The position numbers were made by a program, and so were the translations under genes. From an uncultured Gemmatimonadaceae bacterium (GTDB taxonomy: Bacteria > Gemmatimonadota > Gemmatimonadetes > Gemmatimonadales > Gemmatimonadaceae): DNA of 64,000 nucleotides. How positions within the stretch are numbered: the stretch's first letter is position 1; every line of letters starts with the position of its first letter. This document shows, piece by piece, positions 32,921 through 58,562 of the stretch. The notes under the pieces are model-generated. The model was not told where the DNA came from. It worked only from the letters and a program-made list of their open reading frames with translations, and made no database searches. The stretch covers positions 192,001 to 256,000 of the forward strand of contig CAWAGQ010000006.1 in NCBI GenBank assembly GCA_963781585.1, written 5' to 3'.

Positions 32921-34674
32921 CAGACCAGCGTCGTCAGGTACTCAGGCGCCCGCCGAGCCCTGGTCGTCTGTTCGAACGCATACGCGAGCCTGAGCAGCGC
33001 CCCCTCGCTCCACGCCGGCCCGATGAACGAGAGCCCGCTCGGCAGGCCGTGGACGAGCCCCATCGGCACCGTGATGCTCGGATAGCCGGCCACCGCCGCG
33101 AAGGTCGTGTCGCCCCCCTTGAAGTGGTCGCCGTTGAGATAGTCGGTCGGCCACGCCGGCTGATTCGACGGCAAGACGATCGCATGAAGCCGGTTCTTCG
33201 CCAGTGCCGCATCGATGCCCTGAGCGCGCGACATGCGGACGCACTTCGCGCGCGCGGCCCTGTAGCGGGCGTCGGTGAGCGGCCCCTTTACCTGCGCCTG
33301 CTGGAACAGTTCCTGCCCGAACCACGGCATCTCGCGATCCTTCTCGCGCTCGTTCCACGCGATCAGCTCGGCGAGCGTCTTCACCGGCGCCGTGGCGCCG
33401 AGCGACGCGAGATACGCGTTCAGGCCGTCCTTGAATTCGTACAGCAGCACCTGCAGCTCATCGTCGTCGAACCGGTGCGCGCCGGCGAGGTTCGCGGGAT
33501 CGACCACCTCGGCGCCGGCGCCCTTCATCGCTGCTATTGCCTCGTCGAGCAGGTGGTCAACGTCGGGGTTGAAACCCGCCAGGTTGCGCGACACGCCGAT
33601 GCGCGCGCCCTTGAGGCCCGCGGGGTCGAGGAATCGCGTGTAGTCGGATTCCGTGTGGCCGGTGCTCGCGTTAGTGGCCGCGTCGCGCGGATCGGTGCCA
33701 ACCAGCGCGCCGAGCAGCGCGGCGACATCCGCGACCGAGCGGCACATCGGACCCGCCGTGTCCTGGGATGCGGAGATCGGGATGATCCCCGAGCGGCTCC
33801 AGAGACCCACGGTGGGTTTGAGTCCCACCAGCCCACACATCGACGACGGGCAGATGACAGACCCGTCGGTCTCGGTGCCGATTCCGATCGCAGCGAAATC
33901 GGCAGCGATCGCGGCAGCCGTTCCCGAGCTCGACCCGCACGGGTTGCGATCGAGGATGTATGGATTGTGGGTCTGCCCGCCGCGCCCGCTCCATCCGCTG
34001 GTGGAACGGGTGGAGCGGAAGTTCGCCCACTCGCTGAGATTCGTCTTTCCGAGCAGCACGGCGCCGGCGGCGCGCAGGCGGTCAACGATGAATGCGTCGT
34101 TCGGCGGCGTACTCGTCGCGAGCGCCAAGGATCCGGCCGAGGTGCGCATCTTGTCGGCCGAGTCGATGTTGTCCTTGATGAGGATGGGGATGCCGTGCAG
34201 CGGGCCGCGCACACGTCCGGCTTTGCGCTCGGCGTCGAGGGCGTCGGCGATGGTCCGCGCGTCGGGGTTGAGTTCGATCACTGCATTGACCGCGGGTCCG
34301 CGCTTGTCCATCGCGTCGATGCGGGTCAGGTAGCGATCGACGAGTGCGCGCGAGGTGAGCGAGCCCCGCTCCATGGCGGCGCGCAGGTCGGCGACGGATT
34401 GCTCGAAGAGGGCGTCGCGTTCAGGTACTCCGGCGGCGGGCGTCGGGCCGCGTCGCGACGCCGTGTCGCTGGCCCTGGTGGAGTCGCCTGTATCGCGCGC
34501 GAGCGTGGTGCAGGCGGTGCCGGTGCCGAGGACTATGGTGGCGCCGGCAGCGATGGAGCGGCCGACGAATGTACGGCGGTCCACGGGCGCCTGGCCCGGT
34601 TGGTGGTGGTCACTCTGGGAGCCGACCGCTGAGCGCTGAGTGCTGTTGGCTGCATGTCGGGGAGCGTCAGGCAT
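32920..34674 (-). CDS. Amidase (amidase-signature family) with Tat signal
   Basis: DRRTF Tat motif; IKDNI, GKTNLSEW, CGSSSG, GTETDGS. Confidence 0.95.
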   Translation of the reverse strand: MPDAPRHAANSTQRSAVGSQSDHHQPGQAPVDRRTFVGRSIAAGATIVLGTGTACTTLARDTGDSTRASDTASRRGPTPAAGVPERDALFEQSVADLRAAMERGSLTSRALVDRYLTRIDAMDKRGPAVNAVIELNPDARTIADALDAERKAGRVRGPLHGIPILIKDNIDSADKMRTSAGSLALATSTPPNDAFIVDRLRAAGAVLLGKTNLSEWANFRSTRSTSGWSGRGGQTHNPYILDRNPCGSSSGTAAAIAADFAAIGIGTETDGSVICPSSMCGLVGLKPTVGLWSRSGIIPISASQDTAGPMCRSVADVAALLGALVGTDPRDAATNASTGHTESDYTRFLDPAGLKGARIGVSRNLAGFNPDVDHLLDEAIAAMKGAGAEVVDPANLAGAHRFDDDELQVLLYEFKDGLNAYLASLGATAPVKTLAELIAWNEREKDREMPWFGQELFQQAQVKGPLTDARYRAARAKCVRMSRAQGIDAALAKNRLHAIVLPSNQPAWPTDYLNGDHFKGGDTTFAAVAGYPSITVPMGLVHGLPSGLSFIGPAWSEGALLRLAYAFEQTTRARRAPEYLTTLV

Positions 34675-35088
34675 CGGCGGATTGTGCGAAGGGTTGGACA
34701 AATGGGACGCCGGTGGAGGTACGGCGCTCGCGGGCGGGGGGGGGCGCCGCGCGCCTCTGACCGATCAGCGAACCCCTTGCGGCGGGCGAACACCAAAGTC
34801 GTCCACGACGCGGCAGCACGCCACCCTCGCGCTCGGCTGAGACACGTCGTGAGGACACGGGTCCGGAGCGCGTTAGCGCTCCCTTTCGCGTCGGTTTATC
34901 CCGGGAATCCGCGGAAATGTTACGTCATGTATCAGCGTTGCCCATGGCGTGTCGGTTGTTGCGTGTCTCGCGCCCCAGACTGGAAGCGTCCAAACAGGTC
35001 GAGCGAGGGACGGGCCGCTTCATTAATGAGGCGACGTCGTCGTTCGACGGCCTCGGCAGTTGCCGCAGTGGGCGATGGGAAGGCTCTG

Positions 35089-35910
35089 ATGTCGCAGTCA
35101 ATCCAAACGGCCGGTGCGGGTCGGCCGAAGGTGCTCGTCTTCTGCACGTCGGCGCCGATGGAGCGTGTGATTCGCGAGTCGCTGGCCGGGCAGTTCACGA
35201 TTCGCTCGACCGACAAGTGGAGCGACGTCGAAGCCGAGGCGGCGGCGAGCGCGTGTGTGGTGGCGGTGGTGCCCAGGTTGCGGCCGCCTGACATCGGAGA
35301 ACACCTTGAAGCGGTCAGGACCCATGCGCCGGAGACGCTGATTGTCGTGGTGACGACGAGGACCGCCGAGAATGCGGAGGCGATCCTGCGCATTCCGGTC
35401 GACGCGGTGGTGTGGGAGACGGCCGTACGCGAGCAGCTCCTGCCGGCGGTGGTTCGGGTTCTGGAACACTCGTACCTCGCCGTCGTCGCCCGGAACGCGT
35501 TACGCGAGGGGACGTTCGCACACGAGGTACGCATCGCGATCGCGGCCGCGTGCCGGAGTCATGCTCCCCCGTACTCGGTCGAGCGTTCGGCGATGGCCTG
35601 CGGGGTGCCACGGAGCACGCTGAATGCCGCGTGGAGGAAGGCGGGAGCGCCGCGCCTCAGTCCGAAGCTGTACCTCCGGTGGATTCGCCTGCTGCAGGCG
35701 GTGGCGTGGAAGACGGCTCAGCGCAGCTGGGAGTCGATCGCCGCCGAGCTGCACGTGGACGTGGACACCTTGGCGCGCGATGCGACGAAGGTCGCGGGTC
35801 TTCACCTCCGGGACCTCAGCGTCGAGACAATTGGCCTCCTTCGCGAGAAATTCGAGGACTCTGTGCTTCGTCCGCTGGGTATTCCGGCACCGCCAGCGAA
35901 AATGCGGTAA
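35089..35910 (+). CDS. AraC-like transcriptional regulator, copy 1
   Basis: C-terminal double HTH (SVERSAMACGVPRSTL..SPKLYLRWIRLLQA..SWESIAAEL); receiver-like N-terminus. Confidence 0.75.
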   Translation: MSQSIQTAGAGRPKVLVFCTSAPMERVIRESLAGQFTIRSTDKWSDVEAEAAASACVVAVVPRLRPPDIGEHLEAVRTHAPETLIVVVTTRTAENAEAILRIPVDAVVWETAVREQLLPAVVRVLEHSYLAVVARNALREGTFAHEVRIAIAAACRSHAPPYSVERSAMACGVPRSTLNAAWRKAGAPRLSPKLYLRWIRLLQAVAWKTAQRSWESIAAELHVDVDTLARDATKVAGLHLRDLSVETIGLLREKFEDSVLRPLGIPAPPAKMR

Positions 35911-35954
35911 AGCTGGCCAGTTTGCGGTTGACGGGTTGAGCCGGAATGCACGAT
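35903..35954 (+). promoter_or_regulatory. TGCGGT-N14-TGCGGT repeat plus -10-like CACGAT (also at 41201, 47700, 52110)
   Basis: 20-bp period kept in all four copies; a (C/T)(A/G)CGAT hexamer starts 25-26 bp after the start of the second site. Confidence 0.55.
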
Positions 35955-36181
35955 GTTGGTGCTCGTTCGGGGACCCGCAGCCACGGATCATCTCGCTCAC
36001 CTGGCGAAAAGAAGAACCGTCTGCGGCACGTGCGGCCGGCCGGACCGAGCGTGGTACGATCGGGAGCGTCGCCGCGATTCTCCTATGAGAACGCGGAGCG
36101 CACCGATCGAAGTCGGCTAAAATCACCCACTCATTTCCCCGAAGAACCAGAAAGATTTCCCCTCCACCCAGGGAGAACCGG

Positions 36182-36628: not shown

Positions 36629-37804
36629 ATGTATGCACGTCTGTTGCGATGGATTGGCGGCGCGACTTGTGTCGTTGTGGTTGCTTCCGACGGGCTTTCT
36701 CTGCATCCTGCCCCGCAGCCACTCGATGCGTTGATCGCTCAACCAGAGCCTCTGTTGCAGGAGGCGACTTGGATCTTCTCGCGCCGCTCCGTGAAGGCGT
36801 TCGGTGGCGTTGGAGACTCTTCGTTCACGTTTGGGGTGATCGTCGGAGGTCAGATCATCGGCGACAGCACTATCGTCATTGCCGACGGGTCCAACGGATC
36901 CATTCACTACTTTTCCATGAACGGGGGGACTACGCGGAACTTCGGCCGTCTCGGCCCGGGACCGGGGGAATTCCAGGCGCTAACTGATGTGCATGAGTGC
37001 GAGCCCAGTACCTTGGCCACGTACGATGCCGCAACGGCCCGGATCACTAGGTTTGGTCCCGCCGGAGAGGTTCTCATCGAGAAGAGATCACCCGTCGGCT
37101 TTGTAATCTTGAGACCACTGACTTGTCTCGCCGACGGCTCGATTATCGCTGCCTTCGATCGCCGAGCGCCAATTCCCCAACAGTCGAGCGTTGTTCGCGC
37201 CACTGGACTGCTCGTCCGGATCTCCTCCGACCTTAGTGCCGTTGATACGCTGGCGACGTTTCCGGGAAACGAGCGCTACTTCGCAAACGAGGTTGGCGGA
37301 TATGGAGAACTTCCATTGGGGCGCTCTGGTGTCGTCGCCGCCGGCGCGCACTTCGCCGTGCTCGGTCAGACGGACTCAACTAGAATCCACATTCTACCCT
37401 TGGCAGGAGGGAGTGACCAACTCCTCGATCTTCCTCTCCGCCGTTATCCGGTAACCGCTGCGGCCTTTCGACGCGCCGTAGAACAGAGATTGGAGGACGA
37501 GCCAAGTCGACACACCCAAGACGTGCTGCGAGCCGTATACGCGCACGCGCCCCAACCAACCGGCAACAGGTTTCTTCGGGACCTCTTTGTGGACTCTGTT
37601 GACCGAATATGGGTGCAGACGCCTGCGCTGTCACGGCTCCGGGAGTCGATTTGGCGCGTCTTTGACGCAAGAGGACGTGACGTCGCGCGGGCACTGCTTC
37701 CCGAGACCGCGCGAGTACTCTTCGCCTCGGCTGATCATGTTCTCTTGAGAGTCACCGGCCCAGATGGCGATCAACACGTGGAACTTTTCCACATGCCTCC
37801 CTAG
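36629..37804 (+). CDS. 6-bladed beta-propeller-like exported protein (type A)
   Basis: FGRLGPGPGEF and VDSVDRIWVQ; paralogue of 50449-51582. Confidence 0.75.
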   Translation: MYARLLRWIGGATCVVVVASDGLSLHPAPQPLDALIAQPEPLLQEATWIFSRRSVKAFGGVGDSSFTFGVIVGGQIIGDSTIVIADGSNGSIHYFSMNGGTTRNFGRLGPGPGEFQALTDVHECEPSTLATYDAATARITRFGPAGEVLIEKRSPVGFVILRPLTCLADGSIIAAFDRRAPIPQQSSVVRATGLLVRISSDLSAVDTLATFPGNERYFANEVGGYGELPLGRSGVVAAGAHFAVLGQTDSTRIHILPLAGGSDQLLDLPLRRYPVTAAAFRRAVEQRLEDEPSRHTQDVLRAVYAHAPQPTGNRFLRDLFVDSVDRIWVQTPALSRLRESIWRVFDARGRDVARALLPETARVLFASADHVLLRVTGPDGDQHVELFHMPP

Positions 37805-37857: not shown

Positions 37858-39172
37858 TGCCGCCGGATACGCTTCTCATGCGCGTCGTGTCGGACCTGCT
37901 GACTGGGAAACGTCCGTTCGCCACGTCCCGCCAACCTCCGCCGTGAAAGGTCCGGGAGCCATGCTTCGATGTGATGTATGGTAGGCGCAGCAGCCGCATG
38001 TATCGCACGGCTTGCGGCAGTAGGCCAGGCGCCTGATACCCGACTCGCGACGCGAACTCTCTGGTGGAGCGGACTGGCGACTCTGGTTGCGCCGGCCCTG
38101 TCACTGGCACAGCAGATCCCGCGCACGACGCTCGAACGCCGAGATGCCACGGTCGATTTTGCATTCAACCACATCGGTGGTTGCCGTGAACTAACGGACG
38201 GGCGCGTCCTGATCGGCGACGACTACGAGAGGACGCTCTATCTGATCGACTTTGCGGCCGGAAAGGCAACGGCTCTTGGTAGGTCCGGCTCGGGACCGGG
38301 AGAATTCGAATCGGTAAGCACGCTTCACTATATGGCGGACGATTCGACGCTTCTGGAAGACCGCCGACAAGGTCGCTGGCTGTACTTGCAGGGGCCCCGG
38401 GCGGTCGAAACGATCAACGCGATCACTCGTTTCGGGTACACGCCGACCCTTCACGGAGTGGACAGCATGGGGAGGTTCCTGGAGCTCCGACCTTCGCTGT
38501 ACGGCAAGTCTCCCGGCCTCCCCGCTTTGCGCATTCAATCGTCAGCAGAGTCGCTGCTGGTCATTGTCGGCCATCGGAGCGTTGCCTCCGCGGATACCTT
38601 GGGGCGGATCCGGGGTCAATTTCGAGGTGTCAGGGAGGTTATGAAACCGCTGGTCGCTGGTGGCCCGAGCGTTTCCAGAATAGTGGGCAACCCCTTGGCC
38701 GCGGAGGAACAGGCCATTCTGCTCCTGGATGGGTGGGCCGCGATCGTCTTCGCTGATCCATATCACGTCGAATGGATCACTCCGCGAAAGGTGAGGGTGC
38801 GCGGTCCGCCCCTTCCATTCCAACGAGTGCCGGTCGACGACGCGCAGAAACGGTATGCGGTAGAGATGAGCCGCGGTTACAGGGGTCTGTTTTCACCGGA
38901 CGAACTGCCCGCGTGGCCAGCCATCCTTCCTCCGTTTCTTAACGATGCAGTACTGGCCCTTCCAGATGGACGGATTGCCATTCGACGCACACCGGTGGCT
39001 GGTACGGGTGAGATCTTGTACGACATAGTGGACCGAAGGGGGCAGCTGACATCGCGAATCGCAGTATCGTCTGGTCAGAGATTAGTGGGATTCGGTAGAC
39101 ATGCCGCATATGTCGTGCATGAATCAGGTGACGACAGCGAACGCCTCGATCGCTATCACTGGCCGTAGCCCG
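37858..39172. repeat. ~1.3-kb duplication (DsbA tail + beta-propeller), partner at 56170-57485
   Basis: Near-identical DNA by eye. Confidence 0.9.
37978..39168 (+). CDS. 6-bladed beta-propeller-like exported protein (type B)
   Basis: LGRSGSGPGEF and RLVGFG..YVV; start uncertain. Confidence 0.75.
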   Translation: MVGAAAACIARLAAVGQAPDTRLATRTLWWSGLATLVAPALSLAQQIPRTTLERRDATVDFAFNHIGGCRELTDGRVLIGDDYERTLYLIDFAAGKATALGRSGSGPGEFESVSTLHYMADDSTLLEDRRQGRWLYLQGPRAVETINAITRFGYTPTLHGVDSMGRFLELRPSLYGKSPGLPALRIQSSAESLLVIVGHRSVASADTLGRIRGQFRGVREVMKPLVAGGPSVSRIVGNPLAAEEQAILLLDGWAAIVFADPYHVEWITPRKVRVRGPPLPFQRVPVDDAQKRYAVEMSRGYRGLFSPDELPAWPAILPPFLNDAVLALPDGRIAIRRTPVAGTGEILYDIVDRRGQLTSRIAVSSGQRLVGFGRHAAYVVHESGDDSERLDRYHWP

Positions 39173-39361
39173 CAGGGTGATGGTGTTTGTCCCAACGGGC
39201 GTCGATGATCGGGTGGAATCCTGAATCCGATGTAAGAATGCCGAAATCTCATCCAGGCGTTGATCACCCGGGGCGTACGCCAAGTACGAAGAGGCAAGGA
39301 CAACCAGGCTCGAAGCGCGCGGCTCGCCCTGAGGGTGGTGGCAGCAAGGCAGCGACGGGTC

Positions 39362-39970
39362 AGCGGCGCGCAGGCGTTCGACGATAAACGCGTCCCTGGG
39401 CGGCGTGCTCGTCGCGAGCGCCAGCGATCCGGCCGAGGTGCGCATCCTGTCGGCCGAGTCGATGTTGTCCTTGATGAGGATGGGAATGCCGTGCAGCGGG
39501 CCGCGCACGTGTCCGGCTTTGCGCTCGGCGTCGAGGGCGTAGGCGATGGTACGCGCGTCGGGGTTGAGTTCGATCACTGCGTTGACCGCGGGGCCGCGCT
39601 TGTCCATGGCGTCGATGCGGGTCAGGTAGCGATCAACCAGCGCGCGCGAAGTGAGCGCACCGCGCTCCATGGCGGCGCGGAGGTTGGCGACGGATTGCTC
39701 GAACAGCGCGTCGCGCGCGGGAACGCCTGACGCCGGAACGGGGCCAGGTCGCGACGCCGTGTCGCTGGCCCTGGTGGAGTCGCCGGTATCGCGCGCGGGT
39801 GTGGTGCAGGCAGTGCCGGTGCCGAGGATAATGGTGGCGCCGGCAGCGATGGAGCGGCCGACGAAGGTGCGGCGGTCGACGGGAGCCTGGCCTGCGTGGT
39901 GGTCGTCACTCTGGGAGCTGACCGCTGATCGCTGATGGCTGTTGGCTGCATGTCGGGGAGCGTGAGGCAT
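39362..39970 (-). pseudogene. Truncated amidase (5' third)
   Basis: Tat motif through IVERLRAA, then homology is lost. Confidence 0.9.
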
Positions 39971-40386
39971 TGGCGTGTTGCGCGAAGGGTTGGACAACCA
40001 GGACGCCGGTGGCCGTGCGTGTTCCTGCGGGCGGGGGGGCGCCGCGCGCCTCTGACCGATCAGCCGAACCCCTTGCTGCGGGCGACACCAAACGTCGTCG
40101 ACGACGCGGCAGCACGCCACCCTCGTGCTCGCCTGAGACGCGAGGTGAGCACGCGGGTCCGGAGCGTCAGCGTTCCCTTTCGCGTCGGGTGATCCCGGAA
40201 CACCCGCGGAAATGTTACGTGGTGTATCGGCGTTGCCCATTGCGTGTCGGCTGTTGCTTGCCGAGCGCCCCAGACTGGAACGGTCCAATCAGGTCGCGTC
40301 GATGGGCGGGCGCCTTTCATTAGTGAGGCGACCGTCGTCCGTCGACGGCCTCGGCAGTGGCAGACTTGGGCGATGTGAAGGCGCAG

Positions 40387-41208
40387 ATGTCGCAGTCAAT
40401 CCAAAGCTCAGGTGCGGGTCGGCCGAAGGTGCTCGTCTTCTGCGCCTCCGCGCCGATGGCCGGTGCGATTCGCGAGGCGCTGGCCGGGCACTTCACGATT
40501 CGTGCGACCGACCAGTGGAGCGACGTCGAAGTCGAGGCGGCGGCGAGCGCGTGTGTGGTGGCGGTGGCGCCCAGGTTGCGGCTGCCTGACATCGGAGAAC
40601 ACCTTGAAACGGTCAGGACCCATGCGCCGGAGACGCTGATTGTCGTGGTGACGACGAGGACCGCCGAGAATGCGGAGGCGATCCCGAGCATTCCGGTCGA
40701 CGCGGTGGTCTGGGAGACGGCCGTACGCGAGCAGCTCCTGCCCGCGGTGGTTCGTGTAGTGGAACACTCGTACCTCGCCGTCGTCGCCCGGAACGCATTG
40801 CGCGAGGGGACGCTCGCACACGAGGTACGCATCGCGATCGCGGCCGCGTGCCGGAGTCATGCTCCACCGTACTCCGTCGAGCGTTTGGCGATGGCCTGCG
40901 GGGTGCCACGGAGCACGCTGAATGCCGCGTGGCGCAAGGCGGGAGCGCCGCGCCTCACGCCGAAGCTGTTCCTCCGGTGGATTCGCCTGCTGCATGCGGT
41001 GGCGGGGAAGACCGCTCAGCGCAGCTGGGAGTCGATCGCCGCCGAGCTCCACGCTGACGTGGACACCTTGGCGCGCGATGCGACGCGGGTCGCGGATCTT
41101 CATCTGAGGGACCTGAGTGTGGAGACGATCGACCTCGTTCGCGAGAAATTCGAGGACTCTGTGCTTCGGCCGCTGGGTATTCCGGCACCGCCAGCGAGAA
41201 TGCGGTAA
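40387..41208 (+). CDS. AraC-like transcriptional regulator, copy 2
   Basis: Paralogue of 35089-35910. Confidence 0.75.
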   Translation: MSQSIQSSGAGRPKVLVFCASAPMAGAIREALAGHFTIRATDQWSDVEVEAAASACVVAVAPRLRLPDIGEHLETVRTHAPETLIVVVTTRTAENAEAIPSIPVDAVVWETAVREQLLPAVVRVVEHSYLAVVARNALREGTLAHEVRIAIAAACRSHAPPYSVERLAMACGVPRSTLNAAWRKAGAPRLTPKLFLRWIRLLHAVAGKTAQRSWESIAAELHADVDTLARDATRVADLHLRDLSVETIDLVREKFEDSVLRPLGIPAPPARMR

Positions 41209-41512
41209 AGCTGGCCAGTTTGCGGTTGACGGGTTGAGCCGGAATGCGCGATCTTGGCCCTCGCGTTCGATGCCGACGGATGGGGTGCCCTGATACGCGC
41301 GAGAGTTGTACCGCTGGCAGAGGAGCTGGGCCTTCGAACATCTCCAACCATAGTTCTTGACAGCGCGCAGCTGCCCGACCTCCCGCGAGGGGCCTGGTTT
41401 GGAAACGGCCGTCGGAGGTGGCAAGTAGACCGAGGCAGGGAGGTCCAGACCACCTGCGTACAAACCACCTGCGGACATCGTCGGTGCCAGTCTTCCATTT
41501 CAGAGGCGAAAC

Positions 41513-42436: not shown

Positions 42437-42438
42437 CA

Positions 42439-47762: not shown

Positions 47763-47784
47763 CGCTCGGATTATGGTTGATGGG

Positions 47785-49734: not shown

Positions 49735-50202
49735 ATGCGACGAAGATATCTCTCAAGTCTGGTCACGCTAGCCGTGACCTTCTCCGCCGGCGCTCCGTCA
49801 CCAGCCCTTGCACAGTATGCGGTTGCCTCGGCGGTGCCGTATTCCCTTCGTCCGCGTGTGCAGCATGATCCGTCCAGCATTAGAGCTTTTCCGGTGGCGC
49901 GTGTCCGGGGCAGCGGCCCGTCGCACCGACGGGCCATGATAATCGGGGGAATTATCGGTGGGGCCCTCGGCGGCCTTGGGGGCGCAGCCTTAAGCCGGAG
50001 TCGAGGTCGCATCGTCTGTGTGCCCAGTGGCCCGCCGTGCGTGCGCGAATCGTCTCACCCAGCCGCGTACACCGTCTGCGGGATAGCGCTCGGCGCCGGA
50101 GCCGGCGCTTGGGTCGGGTACCTTCTGACATCCACGGTCATGCCAAAGACCACTCGCCATTGGCGCCGTCCTGTACCTTTCGGCCTCCCGCCTAACTCAT
50201 GA
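49735..50202 (+). CDS. Hypothetical exported protein with glycine zipper
   Basis: GAGGT RBS; signal peptide; GGIIGGALGGLGG; a Cys pair between two hydrophobic helices. Confidence 0.65.
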   Translation: MRRRYLSSLVTLAVTFSAGAPSPALAQYAVASAVPYSLRPRVQHDPSSIRAFPVARVRGSGPSHRRAMIIGGIIGGALGGLGGAALSRSRGRIVCVPSGPPCVRESSHPAAYTVCGIALGAGAGAWVGYLLTSTVMPKTTRHWRRPVPFGLPPNS

Positions 50203-50448
50203 AGCGCCGAGCAGTGTGGCGTGGCTCGCCAGGCGAACTCTGCAAGCACCTGCGACTGGATTGCCCCTCATTCCGGTCTCGCGGCGATTCCGCGTGCCCG
50301 CGTACAAGCGCCGCGTCCGCGGATGCCGCGCGTGTTACGACGAGTAGAGAGGCGATCTGCTCGGAAGACCTCGACCTGCGGCATGAGAGGGCAGGTCCAC
50401 GCGGCGGGGAATGTCGGGGTACTTCGCTGCCACCAAGAAAAGGCGCGA

Positions 50449-51582
50449 TGGATGCTCATGTTGTTGAGGACACACAGGCAACTTGCAACCAGTCTGCTGT
50501 GCTCGGCGCTCGGCCCAGGTCATCAAGAGCAACGGATTCCGCAATGGACGATAGTGGAACCCGCTGTCCAGCTCTTGGGCCGCGCGCCGCAAGACACGAG
50601 CCAGCAGTTCGGCGTTGTTACGGGAGGGTTTCTGGGCGCGGATGGCATGATCGCGATCGGAGACGGGGCGACAGGAAGCATTCGGTTCTTTCGCTCGCCA
50701 GGACGTCTGATTCGTAGTGTTGGCCGAACCGGAAGTGGACCGGGGGAATTCCGCGAACTGAGTTGGGTTGGTGAGTGCGGGCCGAGAGCGTTTGCCGCAT
50801 TCGACGCGCCCGCCTTGCAACTCACACGTTTCGATTCGAGTGGTCAGGTGGCGCTCGTACGCAGAGCGCCCACCCCTTTTGTGGTACTGCGACCACTCAC
50901 GTGCCGCGCCAATGGCGGTATTATCGCGGTCTTCGATTCGCCAGGAACCCTGCCTGAGCAGTCAGGAATATTTCGAACACCCGGTCTCCTGATCTCGATC
51001 GATCGAGACTTCCTCACGTCGGATACGATCGCCGTGTTCCCAGGAAGTGAACGCTACGTCTCACGAGAGGTCGGTGGCTACGGTGAGCTACCGCTGGGGC
51101 TCACCAGCTTTGCGGCCGCCGGTCCCCACGTTGCTGTCGTGGCAAGAAACGATTCGCCATGGATCAGCATCTATCAGGTGCTCTCACGGGACACGAGTCG
51201 CGTCCACGTGCCACTGACACCTCATCAGGTGACCCAGACCGAGTTTGCAGCCGCGGTGGCCGCGCGGGTTGCAGATGAGTCCACGCCGCGCGTTCGCCAG
51301 CTGCTCACTCGCGTGTATGCTTCGGCTCCGGTACCGCGAGGTGTTCGGTACCTGCGTCAGCTGGCGGTGGACGAACTCGATCAAGTCTGGATAGAGACCT
51401 GGGAAGGAACGTCGACAGATATGACCGTCTGGCTTGTTGTCGACATGCGTGGCAAGGTGCTTGGTCGAATCAAACTTCCAGCGGCGGCACGCATCCTGTA
51501 CGCAGATGGTCATGATCTTCTGTTGCGCTTGCCAGCCGCAGATGGTCCGGAGACGGTCGCGCTCTATCGCCTGCGCAAATAG
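50449..51582 (+). CDS. 6-bladed beta-propeller-like exported protein (type A)
   Basis: VGRTGSGPGEF and FPGSERY..EVGGYGELPLG; start uncertain (ORF open from 50221). Confidence 0.75.
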   Translation, partial: WMLMLLRTHRQLATSLLCSALGPGHQEQRIPQWTIVEPAVQLLGRAPQDTSQQFGVVTGGFLGADGMIAIGDGATGSIRFFRSPGRLIRSVGRTGSGPGEFRELSWVGECGPRAFAAFDAPALQLTRFDSSGQVALVRRAPTPFVVLRPLTCRANGGIIAVFDSPGTLPEQSGIFRTPGLLISIDRDFLTSDTIAVFPGSERYVSREVGGYGELPLGLTSFAAAGPHVAVVARNDSPWISIYQVLSRDTSRVHVPLTPHQVTQTEFAAAVAARVADESTPRVRQLLTRVYASAPVPRGVRYLRQLAVDELDQVWIETWEGTSTDMTVWLVVDMRGKVLGRIKLPAAARILYADGHDLLLRLPAADGPETVALYRLRK

Positions 51583-51611
51583 CGGCCCAGGCCCCGACTG
51601 TCCTCGCGGGC

Positions 51612-52117
51612 GCGGTGGTCTGGATGACGGCGATTCCGGAGCAGCTCTACCGTGCAGTGGTCCGCGCCCTCAAGCAGTCATGCCTGGAGGCCGTGGCCGG
51701 CAACGCGTTGCGCGCGGGTTCGCTCCCGCGGGACGTGCGGATCGCGATCGCCGCCGCGTGCAGGAGTCATGCTCCGGTGAACTCTGTGGAGCGCCTGGCG
51801 AAGGACTGCGGATTGTCCCCGGATACCTGTCCGGCGTCTGGAGAAGATCGGTATCGGGGAGCATCACTCCGAAGGCGTTCCTGCGGTGGATTCGATTGCT
51901 TCGCGCGGTGGCCCGGAAGACCCCGCAGCGAAGCTGGGAGTCCATCGCCGCGGAATTCGAGGTGGACGTGGACACGCTGTGGCGGGATGCGACGCAGGTG
52001 GCCGGGTTTCGGCTTCGTGACGTGAGCCTGGGAACGATCGAGGCGCTTCGCGACCGATTCCAGGATACGGTGCTCTATCTCCTGGGAATTGCTTCACCCC
52101 CGGCAAGAATGCGGTAA
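51612..52117 (+). pseudogene. AraC-like regulator copy 4, 5'-truncated and frameshifted
   Basis: VRIAIAAACRSH..SVERLA in one frame and TPKAFLRWIRLL..SWESIAAE..PARMR in another. Confidence 0.85.
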
Positions 52118-52429
52118 ACTCGCCGTCTTTGCGGTTCCGGAAGGATCGGGAAGGTACGATCGTGGTTCGCGCTTTGACGGGCGGGTGAGATCACGTCAGG
52201 TAATGCACGCCGGCGTTGAACCGTTGGTGGCGGACAGTCAGCGGCGGGAGGCAGGGACGAGCAACGATAGAATGTGCACTCACGACGATCAGGCCTGGCA
52301 CCTGCGTTGGCGCTATGGCACCTCGTACCTCCTGGATACCTCCACCTGGTGGGAGACCTCGAGGTCTGTGTAGTACGTGTAGTCTGGCGCCGTGAGGAGT
52401 GCACCATACGGGTCCGCCCAGTAGGCCGT

Positions 52430-52688
52430 GTACCTCCCGCATGGCAGTTGGACCCCGTCAATTGCCTGGCTCGTTATCTGGAAGGGCGCCGATGGCGGCG
52501 ACACGCAAACGTTAGTCAATGTGCAGACAGGGAAGCGAACGTCGGTCGTCCTGCCCTCTTCCTCGCGGGTTGTTGGATTCGGGGGAGGAACAGTCTATGT
52601 TGCTGAGGCAGACAGCAACGGTTTCGAATGGCTGCGACGGGTCCCGCTTCCGGCTTTGGGTGGTACAGCCGGTGGTGCACAGAGGTGA
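52430..52688 (+). pseudogene. Beta-propeller protein C-terminal remnant
   Basis: LP...RVVGFG.GTVYV...D..G..WLRR resembles the type B C-termini. Confidence 0.5.
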
Positions 52689-53023
52689 GGAGACCCACTC
52701 TGGATAGGCCAAGCGAAATCATGATTAAGTGCATCTTGATACTCCCGGCGTGCGCTCTCGAACTTGCCGTTATCGGTAGCCATGGCGTGGTCGCGCCTCA
52801 AGTGCGTATTTCGCCACATCTCGTTCACCGATTTCGCTCCAAGCCGTTCACCCATTTCGGTCCAAGCCGTTCAGTCGTTTCGCTCCAAGCCGTTCGCTCA
52901 TTTCGGCCCATGCCGGTCACCCGTGCCGGTCCAAGGCGATCGGGCGTGATGCGATGAGTTGAGGGCCGCGGGATCCCGTCCACTGCCAGCGATCCTTCCG
53001 GGAACTCTTTCCGGAGCGACGCC

Positions 53024-54685
53024 GTGGCAGCTGTGAGGGTATCCATGCGGAAGGTCCTTGACGTCGTGCGGCTCCGCTTCGAGGCGGGCCGCAGCCAGCA
53101 TGAGATCGGGCTCGCCCTGGGGCTGGCGCAGAGCACCGTCGGCGAGTACCTGCGCCGCTTTCAGGCGAGCGGGCTCGCGTGGCCGCTCGCCGCGGACCTC
53201 GACGAGGCGGTGCTCGAGGCGCGGCTCTTTGCTCGTCCCGCTGCGCCGGCGGCCGAGGCGAGACCGCTCCCCGACTGGCCGACTGTTCACCGCGAGCTCC
53301 GGCGCAAGGGGGTGACGCTCCAGCTCCTGTGGCACGAGTACAAACAGGGCGAAGCGGACGGCGCGGCGTGCTATCAGTACACTCAGTTCTGCCGCCACTA
53401 CCACGCGTGGGCCGCCCAGCTCGATCCGGTGCTCCGGCAGCAGCACACAGCGGGCGAGCGCACCTTCGTGGACTATGCGGGCCAGACCATCGACGTCGTC
53501 GACACGACGACGGGCGAGGTCCGCGCGGCGCAGCTCTTCCTCGGCGTGCTCGGCGCAAGCAACTACTTCTTCGCGGAGGCAACGTGGACGCAGACGCTGC
53601 CGGACTGGATCGCGTCGCATGTGCGCATGGTCGAGTATTTCGGGGGCGTCAGCGCCTTGATCGTGCCCGACAATTTGCGGAGCGGCGTGACGCACGCCTC
53701 GTTCTACGAGCCGACCGTCAACGCGACCTATCAAGACTTCGCCACCCATTACGGCACGGCGATTCTACCCACGCGGGCCGCGCGGCCCCGCGACAAGGCG
53801 AAAGCGGAGTCGGGCGTGCTGGTCGCCGAGCGCTGGCTCCTGGCCCCCCTGCGCCATCACACCTTTACGTCGCTCGCGGAGCTCAATGGCGCGATTGCGC
53901 AGTTGCGGGAGGTTGCGAACGACCGGCCGTTCCAGAAGCTCGCCGGCTCGCGCCGCTCGCTCTTCGAGACGCTCGACCAACCGGCGCTCCGCCCGCTGCC
54001 CGCCACGCGCTACGAGCTGGCGGAATGGCGCACGGCGAAGGTGAACATCGATTATCACATCGCGGTCGACGGCCACTTCTATAGTGTGCCGTATGCCCTG
54101 GTGCGCGCGGCGGTCCGTGTCCGCCTCACCGCGTCGATGATCGAGGTGCTGCATGAGGGCAAGCGGGTGGCGACCCATGCGCGGAGCGCGCAGCGCGGGT
54201 GCTTCACGACCGAGCCCGCGCATCGGCCCAAGTCGCATCAGGCGCACCTCGAGTGGACGCCCTCCCGTCTGGTCCACTGGGGCGCCAGCATTGGCCCGTC
54301 GACCGGGGCGCTCGTGACGAGGATCCTCGAGCGCTGGCCGCATCCCGAGCAGGGGTACCGCGCGTGTCTCGGCCTCTTGTCCCTGCGCAAACGCTACCCC
54401 GACGCGCGGCTGGAAGCCGCGTGTGTCCGCGCGCTCACCACCGGCGCGACGAGTTACAAGTCGGTGAAGTCGATCCTCGCCGCCGGGCTCGATCAGGTCG
54501 CCCCGGAGGAGCCACCACCCCTGCGGCTGCCGGCGACGCACGCCCACATCCGCGGCGCCGACTACTACGCCGACTCCCCGGCTCCGGAGTCCGCGCTGGA
54601 ACTCCCCCGGTCGTCTTCGGCCTCCTTGTCCTCCTCCTCCTCCTCCTCCTCCTCCTCCTCTACGTCTGGAGACCGCTCATGCTGA
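53024..54685 (+). CDS. istA: IS21 transposase IstA
   Basis: FVDYAG, VPDNLRSGV, PRDKAKAE DDE motifs; HFYSVPY. Confidence 0.96.
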   Translation: MAAVRVSMRKVLDVVRLRFEAGRSQHEIGLALGLAQSTVGEYLRRFQASGLAWPLAADLDEAVLEARLFARPAAPAAEARPLPDWPTVHRELRRKGVTLQLLWHEYKQGEADGAACYQYTQFCRHYHAWAAQLDPVLRQQHTAGERTFVDYAGQTIDVVDTTTGEVRAAQLFLGVLGASNYFFAEATWTQTLPDWIASHVRMVEYFGGVSALIVPDNLRSGVTHASFYEPTVNATYQDFATHYGTAILPTRAARPRDKAKAESGVLVAERWLLAPLRHHTFTSLAELNGAIAQLREVANDRPFQKLAGSRRSLFETLDQPALRPLPATRYELAEWRTAKVNIDYHIAVDGHFYSVPYALVRAAVRVRLTASMIEVLHEGKRVATHARSAQRGCFTTEPAHRPKSHQAHLEWTPSRLVHWGASIGPSTGALVTRILERWPHPEQGYRACLGLLSLRKRYPDARLEAACVRALTTGATSYKSVKSILAAGLDQVAPEEPPPLRLPATHAHIRGADYYADSPAPESALELPRSSSASLSSSSSSSSSSSTSGDRSC

Positions 54686-55434
54686 TGCAACAAACGCTCG
54701 ACCTCCTGCACACGCTGCGGCTCCCCGGAATGGCCCAAGCGCTCGAAGAACAGCAGGGTGTGCCGGATCTCGCGAGTCTCGCTTTTGAAGACCGCCTCGC
54801 GCTCCTCCTTGAACGGGAGCGCCTCGGCCGCGACGATCGGCGACTCACGCGGCTGCTCCAGATCGCACGCTTTCGCGAGGCGGCCTGTCTGGAGGACGTG
54901 AACTTCCGCGTGAAGCGCGGCCTCGACCGGAACATCTTCCTCCGGCTCGGTACCGGCGACTGGATCCGGCACCATGACGTGATTCTCATGGTCGGTCCCA
55001 CTGGAACGGGGAAGACCTGGCTGGCCTGTGCGCTCGGCCACAGTGCGTGCCGCCAAGGGCACGTGGTCCGCTACGTCCGTCTGCCGCGACTCCTCAGCGA
55101 GCTGGCGATTGCGCGCGGTGATGGATCGTACGGACGGCTCCTGCAACAACTCGCCAAGACCGACCTGCTCATCCTGGATGACTGGGGGCTCGCCCCGCTC
55201 GGCGATCGCGAACGCCGCGATCTCCTCGAAGTGATCGAAGATCGATCCGGTCGGCGCTCGACTCTCGTAACCAGCCAAGTGCCCGTGGACCACTGGCACG
55301 AACTCGTCGGCGACGCCACGTTTGGCGACGCCATCCTCGATCGCCTCGTCCATCACGCGCACCGCATCACGCTGACCGGAGGCTCGCTCCGGAAACTCAA
55401 ACCGGCCCAGGCCGTGTCCCCTACCACCGAATAA
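54679..55434 (+). CDS. istB: IS21 helper ATPase IstB
   Basis: GPTGTGKT, LLILDDWG, TSQ, DAILDRLVH. Confidence 0.96.
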   Translation: MLMQQTLDLLHTLRLPGMAQALEEQQGVPDLASLAFEDRLALLLERERLGRDDRRLTRLLQIARFREAACLEDVNFRVKRGLDRNIFLRLGTGDWIRHHDVILMVGPTGTGKTWLACALGHSACRQGHVVRYVRLPRLLSELAIARGDGSYGRLLQQLAKTDLLILDDWGLAPLGDRERRDLLEVIEDRSGRRSTLVTSQVPVDHWHELVGDATFGDAILDRLVHHAHRITLTGGSLRKLKPAQAVSPTTE

Positions 55435-55994
55435 CCGTGACTCCACCGATCCCGTGTCTCTCCGCTCGTCGCTGAACGCGATCGTCCGAACCCCGTGAAC
55501 GCTTTGGAGCGAAACGGCTGACCGGCTTCACGCGAAACGCGTGACCGACTTGAGCGAAATACGCATCAAGGTGGCGGCGCATGGTTTGAGCTCACAGGGC
55601 GCGGTCCAGTCACTGTAGAAGTGGACACGAGCTGGCTGCCGATTGACAGTGTGGGAGTGCGGTTTCAGATGAGAGTCACCTACAGGGACCGCAGCTTGTT
55701 CCGCACTTCGTCGAGGGCGGACACGGGGTCAGTAGGGATACGTCCCTTGGCGAGGAGTACCGTACAGCGGATTAGTGAGCACTATGTCGACTGCGGCCAC
55801 CAGCGAATCCGACTGGTGCGACTGGTTGAGGTCGATTCCGCGGGCAGTGCCGTAGTTGAGCGGGCAGGAGCCGTCGACCGCTGGGAACCGTTCGGGGCCT
55901 TCTTCGGATCTATCGCGACCCCTTCCTTCTGTATGCGCTAGAGTTCGCGCGAGGTAGCTATCTCATGATCTGGGCTTGACCTGATGTTGCCTTG

Positions 55995-56290: not shown

Positions 56291-57481
56291 ATGGTAGGCG
56301 CAACAGCCGCATGTGGCGAACGGCTTGCGGCAGTAGGCCCGTCGCCTGATACCCGGCGCGCGATGCGACCTCTCTTGTGGAGCGCATTCGCGACTCTCGC
56401 TGCGCCGGCGCTGTCACTGGCACAGCAGATCCCGCGCACGACGCTCGAACGCCGAGATGCCACGGTCGATTTTGCATTCAACCACATCCATGGTTGCCGT
56501 GAACTATCGGACGGGCGTGTCCTGATCGGCGACGACTACGAGAGGACGCTCTATCTGATCGACTTTGCGGCCGGAAGGGCAACGGCTCTTGGCAGGTCCG
56601 GCTCGGGACCGGGAGAATTCGAATCGGTAAGCGCGCTTCACCTTATGGCAGGCGATTCGACGCTTCTGGAAGACCGCCGGCAAGGTCGCTGGCTGTACTT
56701 GCAGGGGCCCCGGGCGGTCGAAACGATCAACGCGATCACTCGTTTCGGGTACACCCCGACCCTTCACGGAGTGGACAGCATGGGGAGGTTCCTGGAGCTC
56801 CGACCTTCGCTGTATGGCAAGTCTCCCGGCCTCCCCGCTTTGCGCATTCAATCGTCAGCAGAGTCGCTGCTGGTCATTGTCGGCCATCGGAGCGGAGCCT
56901 CCGCGGATACCTTGGGGCGGATACGGGGTCAATTTCGAGGTGTCAGGGAGGTCATGAAACCGCTGGTCGCTGGTGGCCCGAGCGTTTCCAGAATAGTGGG
57001 CAACCCCTTGGCCGAGGAGGAACAGGCCATTCTGCTCCTGGATGGGTGGGCCGCGATCATCTTCGCTGATCCATATCACGTCGAATGGATCACTCCGCGA
57101 AAGGTGAGGGTGCGCGGTCCCCCCCTTCCATTCCAACGAGTGCTGGTCGACGACGCGCAGAAGCGGTACGCGGTAGAGATGAGCCGCGGTTACCGGGGTC
57201 AGTTTTCACCGCACGAACTGCCCGGGTGGCCAGCCATCCTTCCTCCGTTCCTGAACGATGCAGTTCTTGCCCTTCCGGATGGACGAATTGCCATTCGGCG
57301 CACACCGGTGGCTGGTGCGGGTGAGATATTGTATGACATAGTGGACCGCAGCGGGCGGCTGACGTCCCGAATTGCTGTGTCGCCTCGTCAGCGAATAGTG
57401 GGATTCGGTCCGCGTGCAGCATATGTCGTGAGTGAATCAGGTGACGACAGCGAACGCCTCGATCGTTATCAGTGGCCGTAG
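56291..57481 (+). CDS. 6-bladed beta-propeller-like exported protein (type B)
   Basis: Near-identical to 37978-39168; likely start is ATG 56363. Confidence 0.75.
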   Translation: MVGATAACGERLAAVGPSPDTRRAMRPLLWSAFATLAAPALSLAQQIPRTTLERRDATVDFAFNHIHGCRELSDGRVLIGDDYERTLYLIDFAAGRATALGRSGSGPGEFESVSALHLMAGDSTLLEDRRQGRWLYLQGPRAVETINAITRFGYTPTLHGVDSMGRFLELRPSLYGKSPGLPALRIQSSAESLLVIVGHRSGASADTLGRIRGQFRGVREVMKPLVAGGPSVSRIVGNPLAEEEQAILLLDGWAAIIFADPYHVEWITPRKVRVRGPPLPFQRVLVDDAQKRYAVEMSRGYRGQFSPHELPGWPAILPPFLNDAVLALPDGRIAIRRTPVAGAGEILYDIVDRSGRLTSRIAVSPRQRIVGFGPRAAYVVSESGDDSERLDRYQWP

Positions 57482-57687
57482 CCCGGAGGTGGCGGTGTAT
57501 GTCCCGAAGTTGGTTGATAATCGGGTGGGTGCCTGGCTAACGAATGCTGCGCAGTGTTGTCGCCGGCCGGTGCACCCCAAGGGATCTTGCCCGGCCCACC
57601 GGCGACCGCCAGTTTGAACAAGATACGGTTCCTCTGGGACGCGGAATGTCGACGGCGCAGGCGCGCATTCGTCCGTTACGAGGCGGA

Positions 57688-58494
57688 GTGCCGATGCCGT
57701 GGACCCTCGGGAAACAGGTGGTTGGCGCGCTATGCCTGGCGGCGTCAATCTGCGCGCTCTCCTCCACCGCCAAGGCTCAGCGCAGCGGGATCGTCCTGAG
57801 CGTCGTGGTTCGGGATGCCGACACCGGTGAACCCGTGGCAGGCGCAGAAGTGACAGTGCGAGATGCAAACCTGCAGTCGCGCACTGACTCACTCGGCCGC
57901 GTGGTCTTCTCGAACGTCCCGACACCCTCGGGTTCCATCGACGTGCGGCGCCTTGGGTACGCGTCGCTCGAGACCACGTTTCGCTCAGCCGAACGTGATA
58001 CGGTGCGGCTGATGGTCCGGCTGGAACCGGTCGCGCAGGCCCTGCCGCGTGCATCCGTCGTTGATACCGAAGGTCTGTCGCGGCTTCCCGAATTCGAGTC
58101 GAGACACGGAAAGCGGTTTGGCCGGTTCATCACCGAGAAGGAGATCCGTGCCGCTCTCGGTAGTACGCTGTCTGACCTGGTCATGACGAAGATCCCTGGC
58201 CTGCGCATCAGCTACGTTCCCGGATTTGGCGCGAAGGCATATAGCACTCGTGGACCTCGGTCGATCCATGTGGATCTATGCCAGGTGGCGGTCTACCTGG
58301 ATGGCGTCCGGGTGTCTAATGGAGTCGTCGATCTGGTCGCGCTCAGCCTACTGGCTGGCGTGGAGTACTACCCGCCCGGGTTCGTGCCCGTCCAGTACAA
58401 AGTTCTGGGTGCAGCGCCCGGCATGGGGCGCATCCCTTCGGAGGAAGGCGGGAGCGCGGAGTGCGGGGTGCTGCTGCTCTGGACGATCCGCTGA
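57688..58494 (+). CDS. CarboxypepD_reg-like + TonB plug-like domain exported protein (no barrel)
   Basis: VRDADTGEPVAGAEV, RTDSLG, VRRLGY, then GRFIT..EI, C...VYLDG, GVEYY, CGVLLLWT. Confidence 0.8.
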   Translation: MPMPWTLGKQVVGALCLAASICALSSTAKAQRSGIVLSVVVRDADTGEPVAGAEVTVRDANLQSRTDSLGRVVFSNVPTPSGSIDVRRLGYASLETTFRSAERDTVRLMVRLEPVAQALPRASVVDTEGLSRLPEFESRHGKRFGRFITEKEIRAALGSTLSDLVMTKIPGLRISYVPGFGAKAYSTRGPRSIHVDLCQVAVYLDGVRVSNGVVDLVALSLLAGVEYYPPGFVPVQYKVLGAAPGMGRIPSEEGGSAECGVLLLWTIR

Positions 58495-58562
58495 GGGGCG
58501 AGAATCGCGACAAACTCGCCGATACTGAATGACGCCGGTGGGGGAGGCCCCGCCGAGTGCCG

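Follow-up and report, generated by a model that had tools for sequence, protein, structure and literature searches.

The window analyzed here is a 64,000-nucleotide stretch of an uncultured Gemmatimonadaceae genome, C6:192001-256000; C6, C2, C5, C7 to C11 and C17 are names of contigs of a single bin. It holds an array in which a block made of the 5' part of an amidase gene and a complete, divergently oriented regulator gene recurs as three direct copies, which we call anchors A, B and C, with co-oriented sets of genes (cargo) lying behind them. An initial annotation of this DNA had read the array as a series of regulator-promoter modules, each driving a different exported-protein cargo. Its description of the repeat, of the boundaries of the repeat, of the contrast in guanine-plus-cytosine (GC) content and of an AraC-type fold in the regulator stood up to our analysis, whereas its statement that the cargo genes are unrelated, its remark on integrases and its view of a fourth copy had to be revised.

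Amidase-regulator anchors and the genes between them

Self-BLASTN of 30 to 64 kb, together with a repeat search, resolved the 1.9-kb block into three direct copies close to where the initial annotation had placed them (about 34.0, 39.4 and 45.8 kb). Each copy comprises a minus-strand amidase 5' part, a 414-bp divergent intergenic region, a plus-strand gene of 273 codons and the 55 to 61 bp that follow its stop codon, and neighboring units are spaced 5.3 to 6.5 kb apart. Over the 1.9 kb, anchors A and B are 89.6% identical, B and C 87.7% and A and C 84.1%; identity at the protein level is 80 to 88%. The anchors, their parts and a partial fourth unit (D) are as follows.

32920..34701, minus strand: amiA, a 593-amino-acid (aa) open reading frame (ORF) for a full-length amidase (Pfam Amidase, 2.2e-93, profile positions 2-445 of 445; NCBIfam PRK08137, 4e-222)
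34015..35965, unstranded: anchor A, with the amidase 5' end, the 414-bp divergent intergenic region, regA and the post-stop motif (self-BLASTN and repeat search)
35089..35910, plus strand: regA, 273 aa, with a predicted receiver-like domain without phospho-acceptor residues and an AraC-type double helix-turn-helix
35911..35965, plus strand: post-stop motif, conserved over 55-61 bp after the regulator stop, also at 41209-41269 and 47708-47768 (alignment)
39349..41269, unstranded: anchor B, with an amidase fragment (39349-39997, minus strand, 216 codons), the intergenic region, regB (40387-41208, plus strand) and the motif
45823..47768, unstranded: anchor C, with an amidase fragment (45823-46496, minus strand, about 226 codons), the intergenic region, regC (46886-47707, plus strand) and the motif
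51600..52274, plus strand: unit D, a second-subtype regulator of which the 3' two-thirds are present, frameshifted, with 160 bp of sequence behind it, 85% identical to C10:276078-276753
52278..52469, plus strand: segment X, 192 bp, 95% identical to C10:274445-274638

Only copy A runs on into a complete amidase gene, amiA, which encodes a Tat-type signal (VDRRTFVGRS) and contributes its 5' third to the anchor. The amidase fragments of the block cover positions 2-91 and 2-107 of the 445-position Pfam Amidase profile, as the earlier recognition of an amidase 5' end in the unit would lead one to expect. Their truncation points are nearly equal (34053 versus 34015), and because they lie only 38 bp apart they fit one propagated junction type. 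The junctions that join cargo gene A3 to amidase fragment B and cargo gene B5 to amidase fragment C (both genes are listed below) hold 133 bp and 75 bp of unique DNA, respectively.

At the other end of the block, similarity stops 55 to 61 bp beyond the regulator stop in each of the three units, close to the roughly 50 bp given by the initial annotation. The conserved stretch behind the stop codon includes a palindrome, CTGGCCAG, and the sequence TTTGCGGTTGAC; a 24-nt piece of it occurs three times, against none expected from 100 shuffles, and its TTTGCGGTT core is kept even in unit D, the divergent subtype. Scans of 34 to 53 kb with promoter and terminator consensus sequences gave counts at or below the shuffle expectation and no site in the motif, and a search of the amidase-regulator intergenic region for the motif or for common 7-mers returned one trivial 7-mer only. 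We also considered whether the anchor might itself be a transposable unit and rejected this, as inspection of the anchor ends by eye revealed no target-site duplications or terminal inverted repeats.

The copy at 51.6 kb had been described as a degenerate, regulator-only version of the same unit. A partial copy is indeed present there, but it is not a decayed anchor: unit D matches anchors A, B and C at about 71% identity (51608-52166) and represents a second regulator subtype, of which this genome has another copy on C10. That copy (C10:274445-276753) has a short amidase signal-peptide fragment ahead of a frameshifted regulator with one TGA inside, sits in low-GC DNA and is followed 2.3 kb downstream by a propeller gene of the type that we call type 2 below. 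Segment X lies upstream of the regulator unit on C10 and thus stands in permuted order in the window; this Y-X junction is as expected from a tandem or circular form of the second-subtype unit. A propeller-gene fragment lies between unit D and the insertion sequence (IS) to its right. A 135-bp patch of amidase fragment C agrees with the C10 copy at 92.6%, where the regulator itself reaches an identity of only about 69%. Two metagenome proteins (P0004 and P0005) are intact and 72 to 83% identical to the second subtype, both copies of which are broken in this genome.

The cargo genes and mobile elements between and behind the anchors are listed in order.

36629..37804, plus strand: A2, a 391-aa exported beta-propeller-like protein, type 1, with C3 as a paralogue (43%; tblastn and tblastx)
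37978..39168, plus strand: A3, a 396-aa exported protein, type 2, of a Gemmatimonadota-specific 6-bladed-propeller-like family, 91% identical to D3
41513..42436, plus strand: B1, a 307-aa putative lipoprotein (TGSC, lipobox-like) without a family in Pfam or NCBIfam and with no paralogue found in the genome
42603..43139, minus strand: IS256-family transposase fragment (Pfam Transposase_mut, 2e-28, profile positions 102-263 of 379), which abuts and apparently truncates the B3 5' end
43166..44023, plus strand: B3, an ORF of 285 aa with no signal-like N-terminus and a C-terminal domain similar to that of C1 (by eye)
43869..45044, plus strand: B4, a 391-aa ORF with a likely lipoprotein start further in (MVIVPTAC) and an HEMLH (HExxH) motif
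45229..45748, plus strand: B5, a frameshifted, internally deleted pseudogene of the D4 family (CarboxypepD_reg and Plug), two frames, 63-65% identical to D4
47786..48344, plus strand: IS5-family transposase remnant, degraded and without its own left end, 18 bp past anchor C (Pfam DUF772, 2e-7)
48185..49636, plus strand: C1, a lipoprotein with a likely start near 48413 and lipobox VIAC
49735..50202, plus strand: cargo gene C2, a 155-aa exported glycine-zipper protein (Pfam Gly-zipper_Omp, 8.8e-5, below cutoff)
50221..51582, plus strand: C3, type-1 propeller-like (identity 43% with A2, 73% with a C9 paralogue)
52803..55563, plus strand: IS21-family element, intact, with IstA at 53024-54685 and IstB in the ORF 54199-55434 (Pfam Mu-transpos_C_2, rve and IstB_IS21)
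56291..57481, plus strand: D3, type-2 propeller-like, 91% identical to A3, synonymous divergence (dS) 0.126
57544..58494, plus strand: D4, an exported protein of 316 aa that has CarboxypepD_reg and Plug domains but lacks a barrel, one of a family with many genomic paralogues

All of the cargo genes point the same way, as the initial annotation had stated, but they are not unrelated from unit to unit. Genes A2 and C3 are 43% identical, A3 and D3 are 91% identical (93% over 1359 bp at the DNA level), B5 and D4 are 63 to 65% identical, and B3 shares a C-terminal domain with C1. The modules also end alike, in a type-2 propeller gene or a D4-type gene: A3 adjoins amidase fragment B, B5 (which has a Pfam Plug match) adjoins amidase fragment C, and D3 and D4 close the array. 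For A2 the sole family lead is a weak NHL-type match in NCBIfam (E 0.027). The Atlas look-alikes of A3 and C1 are Gemmatimonadota clusters; those of A3 score 0.96 to 0.97, and in some of them 26 to 31% of the members carry DUF5128, while C1 scores 0.97 against a cluster of its own type and only 0.79 against Peptidase_A4. Paralogue fragments of B4 occur at window 31284-31682 and on contig C2. No toxin or immunity family emerged when the cargo was scanned against Pfam and NCBIfam; B4 has its HExxH motif and C1 its weak Peptidase_A4 lead (0.79). The D4 family itself comprises exported proteins of roughly 260 to 316 aa, encoded at more than 20 places in the genome, which have a CarboxypepD_reg domain and a TonB-receptor Plug without a beta-barrel; its tblastn matches share one C-terminal end point.

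A hydrophobic, signal-like N-terminal run is present in nine of 10 cargo ORFs, B3 being the exception, according to a simple pattern check that is not a signal-peptide predictor; this bears out the claim that almost all of the cargo carries signal peptides or lipoboxes. The claim that the cargo is richer in AT than its surroundings is likewise supported. Its GC content is 60 to 62%, compared with 68% in the anchors and a genome mean of 67%, which puts the cargo in the lowest 0.6 to 3.5% of 3-kb genome windows and the anchors at the 60th to 71st percentile. A second compositional signal is not confined to the cargo. The octamer CGTTAGGC/GCCTAACG has 1442 copies in the genome (0.25 per kb) and occurs 13 times in the first 31.3 kb of the window, yet just once between window positions 31299 and 61698, so that its scarcity covers the whole array region, anchors included; only 2.2% of 25-kb genome windows have one copy or none.

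Mobile elements have left three footprints from three families (IS21, IS5 and IS256), one each, at non-equivalent positions. The IS21 element is 99.96% identical over 2761 bp to C8:83896-86655, has a partial copy at C8:4690-5299 (83%) and looks recently active. The IS5 remnant is 67% identical to 1009-bp repeats on C11 and C7, and the frame of B3 opens at 43127, at the IS256 fragment. (In the tblastx comparison of leaders and gaps with the genome, most matches were high-GC noise, and we relied on it for the IS5, IS256 and propeller-fragment calls only.) The array does not look like a composite transposon or other IS-bounded unit, as copies of the same IS do not lie at both ends of any unit. 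The earlier statement that no integrase is visible holds in its narrow sense: there is no tyrosine or serine recombinase (no Phage_integrase) among the 31, 11 and 1 ORFs scanned against Pfam, from the 169 ORFs of at least 80 aa in 30 to 64 kb. DDE transposases are present, however, and with three IS footprints the locus is not free of mobile-element enzymes. The ends of three cargo sets share at most 7 to 9 nt with each other or with the post-stop motif, and we found no motif common to them.

The regulator family

All three full-length copies of the regulator are intact, with ratios of non-synonymous to synonymous divergence (dN/dS) of 0.40 to 0.47. The 273-aa protein gave no Pfam hit, Response_reg included; HTH_18/HTH_AraC matches were absent from six of six members of the family at E values up to 10, and the only family trace was a weak NCBIfam match to AndR (E 0.024). 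An AlphaFold model built from a six-sequence alignment reached a predicted local distance difference test score (pLDDT) of 87.2, and the C-terminal 134 residues, folded alone, reached 85. The N-terminal half matches receiver domains with Z scores of 11 to 13 and a root-mean-square deviation of about 2 Å over 110 to 120 residues (Foldseek target-side TM up to 0.79). The C-terminal part matches MarA (1bl0) with a Z score of 9.5 over 111 of 116 residues; ranks 1 to 15 all belong to the AraC family, after which Z drops to 5.4. As modeled, then, the regulator is a receiver-like fold joined to an AraC-type DNA-binding fold, and the AraC-like label of the initial annotation is borne out at the level of the fold, through MarA, without a Pfam hit.

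The receiver-like half lacks the residues on which receivers depend for phosphorylation. True receivers have an acidic pair, a phospho-acceptor Asp and a Lys, and none of these was seen in any of the six members when the alignment was inspected against the strands of the model; the corresponding positions hold C-A/S after strand 1, A/V-P after strand 3 and E/T-type residues after strand 5. This reading comes from inspection alone, and we take the N-terminal domain to be a pseudo-receiver. A search of solved structures with the alignment profile returned nothing below E 0.2. The arrangement of a receiver fold followed by an AraC-type double helix-turn-helix is that of response regulators with AraC output, such as YesN (PDB 3lsg is among the structural matches to our model), although six of six members here appear to lack the acidic pocket, as well as the phospho-acceptor Asp and the conserved Lys.

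A profile search of 1.84 billion cluster representatives gave 836 matches at E values up to 1e-3 and 109 at up to 1e-30, most of them 250 to 290 aa long; the family is uncharacterized, yet it is not tiny, and we flag it here as one with at least 836 cluster representatives and no Pfam model. In some members (P0032, P0040, P0066 and P0155), which are about 640 to 650 aa long, the receiver-like/AraC part forms the C-terminus, and the N-terminal domain fused to it in some lineages might give a hint at the signal that is sensed. Close relatives are scarce. Among 41 genomes searched, regulator homologues occur in five, including this genome itself, and the best outside it are 34 to 35% identical; a word-indexed search of 5.8 billion proteins returned six proteins, three of them from the window. 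Two scans of metagenome contigs yielded no confirmed relative, and a scan of genome contigs yielded one locus, in another Gemmatimonadaceae metagenome-assembled genome (MAG), where the gene directly behind a 39%-identical regulator homologue matches the DUF5128 propeller weakly (E 8e-4, below cutoff). Propeller genes also lie within 2 to 4 kb of the regulator copies on C10 and C7. Because of this position, it is plausible that each regulator copy controls the exported-protein genes adjacent to it, and we predict that it would do so in response to a ligand or partner and not to phosphorylation.

Origin of the array

How the units came to be stacked has to be judged against the nature of the bin. 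The genome amounts to 5.7 Mb in 17 contigs with 67% GC and is scored as 93.5% complete and 7.2% contaminated. Three pairs of contigs within it (C2/C6, C5/C8 and C11/C17) are collinear at 81 to 96% identity; one C2/C6 high-scoring segment pair is 25 kb at 89%, and the collinearity of C5 and C8 spans about 400 kb. The bin is demonstrably a mix of two related genomes, which calls for caution with any paralogue or repeat found in it. It also supplies a yardstick for divergence, in that seven long ORF pairs between C2 and C6 have dS values of 0.17 to 0.42 (median 0.26) and a median dN/dS of 0.12.

Two patterns in the anchors bear on their history. The anchors are mosaic, in that B equals C at 97 to 100% identity over A-coordinates 34779-35200 (the intergenic region and the start of the regulator) and then equals A at 93 to 98% over 35200-35700, where C is at 75 to 80%; such a structure points to gene conversion. 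The amidase fragments, for their part, have pairwise dN/dS values of 0.05 to 0.23 and dS values of 0.29 to 0.45, the latter in the range seen between the two co-binned genomes. A copy that was truncated when it was duplicated would be expected, under neutrality, to collect about 2.7 non-synonymous changes per synonymous one. Over 120 codons of the catalytic domain, we counted 11 synonymous and two non-synonymous changes on the branch to A, which is intact (P against neutrality 2e-5), 11 and 10 on the branch to B (P = 0.011), and 18 and four on the branch to C (P = 1e-7). Since changes in the truncated amidase are mostly synonymous, most of the divergence would have arisen in working amidase genes. 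The stacked anchors thus probably diverged while they still functioned as genes, for which related lineages are the simplest setting, and did so without a truncating duplication in place having come first.

In the account that we favor, with about even confidence, a single hypervariable locus was amplified in tandem and then rearranged by general recombination, homologous as well as illegitimate, with no dedicated capture system. It is the one that needs the fewest coincidences. In the ancestral locus, the amidase gene and the divergent regulator would have stood first, variable genes for exported proteins next, and a type-2 propeller gene with a D4-type gene at the end. One or two tandem duplications, with the left breakpoint inside the amidase and the right one just past A3 or B5, may then have produced the truncated amidase junctions. 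Homologous recombination with diverged alleles of related lineages, for which the amidase-regulator block would have offered the left arm and the conserved end genes a postulated right arm, could have replaced the anchors and cargo of single units; such replacement would have carried selection-filtered amidase sequence into truncated copies and left homology ending about 55 bp past the regulator. Afterwards, copies would have been altered by gene conversion among themselves, three IS would have inserted and some genes would have decayed. The initial annotation had proposed that alternative alleles from related strains were stacked by recombination within the amidase-regulator anchor. The mosaic anchors and the synonymous bias of the amidase fragments agree with the first half of that proposal; the stacking junctions, however, are located at the truncated amidase end and not in the regulator.

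Several points weigh against this recombination account or against the idea that the regulators drive the cargo. The array is known from the assembled contig alone, in a bin that mixes two related genomes, and no close version of the locus was found in any genome or contig searched (41 relatives and the metagenomes). Exchange of alleles between lineages is read from substitution patterns only, and a low dN/dS is also to be expected if truncation was recent and all three amidase copies had long been full length and functional before it. On the right-hand side, the homology arms are a postulate. That an internally truncated IS5 remnant directly follows anchor C is not specifically predicted by the model, and a simple sigma-70 scan found no promoter-like site within the post-stop motif.

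We weighed three other explanations, the first being a history confined to this genome. Head-to-tail repeats with a gene-truncating junction are what is found here and what simple tandem duplication leaves behind. In its barest form, as duplication in place, this accounts for the order of the units and their junctions but fails where the dN/dS values of truncated copies, the unequal divergence of parts and the composition are concerned. A fuller version supposes that full units with functional amidases were duplicated in tandem long ago, diverged in place and suffered two later deletions, in B and C, without any foreign DNA. The paralogous cargo pairs (A2/C3, A3/D3 and B5/D4), the gene conversion between copies and the large, genome-wide paralogue families of the cargo genes would all suit it, and a recent truncation would make the low dN/dS of the amidase fragments compatible with it. 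It needs, however, two independent deletions that end 38 bp apart in a 1.8-kb gene, and it must also accommodate cargo whose GC ranks so low in the genome (0.6 to 3.5%), an octamer depleted over the whole 30 kb, and anchors that differ by as much as the two genomes in the same sample do. The parts of the units have, moreover, diverged to very different degrees, from 80 to 88% for the anchor proteins and 91% for A3/D3 to 43% for A2/C3 and 73% for C3 and its paralogue on C9, which argues against simple duplication. We regard this explanation as unlikely.

The contamination of the bin (7.2%) and its long collinear contig pairs (C2/C6, C5/C8 and C11/C17) raise the further prospect that the array is an artefact of assembly, in which two or three related populations living together each contributed a homologous locus to what became one MAG contig. 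That the anchors differ by the same amount as the contig pairs, and that the amidase fragments look like orthologues, would be in keeping with this. Over about 225 kb at this level of divergence, the same assembly nevertheless kept C2 separate from C6. The junctions do not fall at common sequence, 133 bp and 75 bp of unique DNA separating the end of a cargo gene from a point inside the amidase; the mosaic of anchor B is fine in scale and includes about 420 bp at 97 to 100% identity to C; and C10 provides both a related permuted junction and a further unit of amidase fragment and regulator. The spacing of 5.3 to 6.5 kb could be spanned by single long reads, a long-read assembly being surmised only from the 17 contigs for 5.7 Mb. 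Because C2 and C6 were kept apart, the junction DNA is unique and non-homologous and copy B is finely mosaic, we consider an artefact decidedly unlikely. Less probable still, to the point of being very improbable, is a dedicated, integrase-free system of cassette capture in which the post-stop motif would serve as the insertion site and the regulator-promoter module as the expression platform, although the point at which homology ends does agree to within about 6 bp among three units, the divergent subtype retains the TTTGCGGTT core, the cargo is co-oriented and compositionally foreign, and the permuted Y-X junction of unit D could come from a circular or tandem intermediate. The cargo ends have no common motif or inverted repeat, IS transposases are the only recombinases among the scanned ORFs, and the integron-core-like octamer is depleted here. 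Site-specific insertion at the motif would not be expected to repeat the whole anchor, useless amidase fragment included, and in unit C the motif abuts the IS5 remnant and not a cassette. The cassette-accumulating mechanism of the initial annotation finds no support on these grounds, as nothing points to a dedicated mechanism and no conserved site marks the ends of the cargo.

Comparison with known systems and the surroundings of the locus

The initial annotation had not recognized the array as a described system, but published models already account for arrays of this kind: a homology-anchored displacement model has been put forward for type VI secretion system (T6SS) and Rhs loci (Kirchberger et al. 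2017, PMC5361080), and homologous recombination at conserved blocks for lpl, a cluster of tandem lipoprotein genes in Staphylococcus aureus (Tsuru and Kobayashi 2008, PMC2568036). As outlined in the first of these, the arrays of T6SS effector-immunity modules in Vibrio cholerae and those that C-terminal displacement leaves in Rhs and contact-dependent inhibition (CDI) loci are same-orientation stacks of non-homologous modules without an integrase. Fragments of a conserved gene stand at the heads of their modules, just as units B and C each start with a 5' piece of the amidase gene (216 and about 226 codons). A homologous anchor with illegitimate joining, followed by exchange through homologous recombination, is the mechanism proposed there, and the modules look like alleles of other strains, a likeness that our locus would share insofar as substitution patterns suggest donor alleles. 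The present array differs from that outline in three respects: its anchor is a divergent gene pair (an amidase 5' end and a complete regulator) that is repeated whole, its modules are multi-gene sets for exported proteins, and the scan of its ORFs detected neither toxin or immunity domains nor any gene of the T6SS, Rhs or CDI kind.

The lpl cluster, as presented in PMC2568036, likewise consists of tandem genes for exported proteins or lipoproteins in a genomic island, with a conserved block as the site of homologous recombination, shuffled variable parts and flanks of incongruent history. The block there lies inside each ORF, however, and all units are paralogues of one gene, whereas here it is a regulator plus an amidase fragment and the units contain different gene families. 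Replacement-type flexible genomic islands, in the description given by Lopez-Perez et al. 2014 (PMC4033161), share with our locus the low-GC, strain-variable surface or exported genes, the fixed place between conserved sequences and exchange without a site-specific recombinase; they differ in having one version per genome, where here several are stacked, each with its own copy of the left flank. An integron, too, has co-oriented variable gene units downstream of a conserved platform, but IntI was not found among the scanned ORFs, no attC-like element was found at the unit ends, and the units here are multi-gene and each repeat the platform.

Among the literature matches listed, judged by title, no such array in Gemmatimonadetes was found. 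What sets this locus apart is the anchor composed of a whole regulator and a gene fragment, together with the multi-gene, non-toxin cargo; the stacking logic has already been proposed elsewhere. If the array is real, alternative versions of a variable surface or exported-protein locus are kept side by side instead of replacing each other, each with a regulator of its own, and general recombination is all that the stacking needs. The idea of the displacement array would then extend from toxin-immunity pairs to regulated gene sets, in a poorly studied soil phylum. One may go further and see here an operon-scale displacement array, a regulon-level counterpart of the Rhs and T6SS orphan arrays, in which regulator-headed sets of exported-protein genes from related lineages are stacked by homology-anchored recombination without a recombinase of their own, and each set keeps a private, phosphorylation-independent receiver/AraC regulator and can be switched separately; this we put forward tentatively, as an unlikely reading. 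Independently of these interpretations, the dN/dS of truncated junction genes offers a usable test between duplication in place and the stacking of diverged alleles.

On the left, contig C2 is collinear with C6 at 81 to 93% identity up to window position 32902, and beyond this point, past a ChaN-like gene common to both, it continues to the contig end with entirely different DNA rich in mobile elements, in which an amidohydrolase gene accompanies Hypoth_Ymh, part of a tyrosine recombinase and a transposase of the IS5 type. Since the two contigs part ways there, the site varies between close relatives, and in this lineage it looks like a hotspot of integration or variation. For the right flank, no homologous contig was found in the bin. 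Of the flanking genes, the ChaN-like one is present in one of five relatives and a cytochrome c peroxidase gene in none, a comparison limited to five genomes. No tRNA gene was found in the window.

Some further features of the surroundings were recorded. On C2, within C2:236000-244240, positions 3764-6914 of that stretch encode the C-terminal fragment of a tyrosine recombinase, Hypoth_Ymh and the IS5-type transposase (527 aa), with the contig end near. The B4-like fragment at window 31284-31682 is 37% identical to B4 over 133 aa and lies just upstream of the ChaN-like, heme-binding gene; this arrangement (window 31284-32902) recurs at C2:237929-239473 with 81% DNA identity. To the right of the array, a perfect 40-bp palindrome at 59575-59614 (a 100% self-match on the opposite strand) is located within or beside a minus-strand ORF (58978-59622) with nucleotidyltransferase and MarR-like matches.

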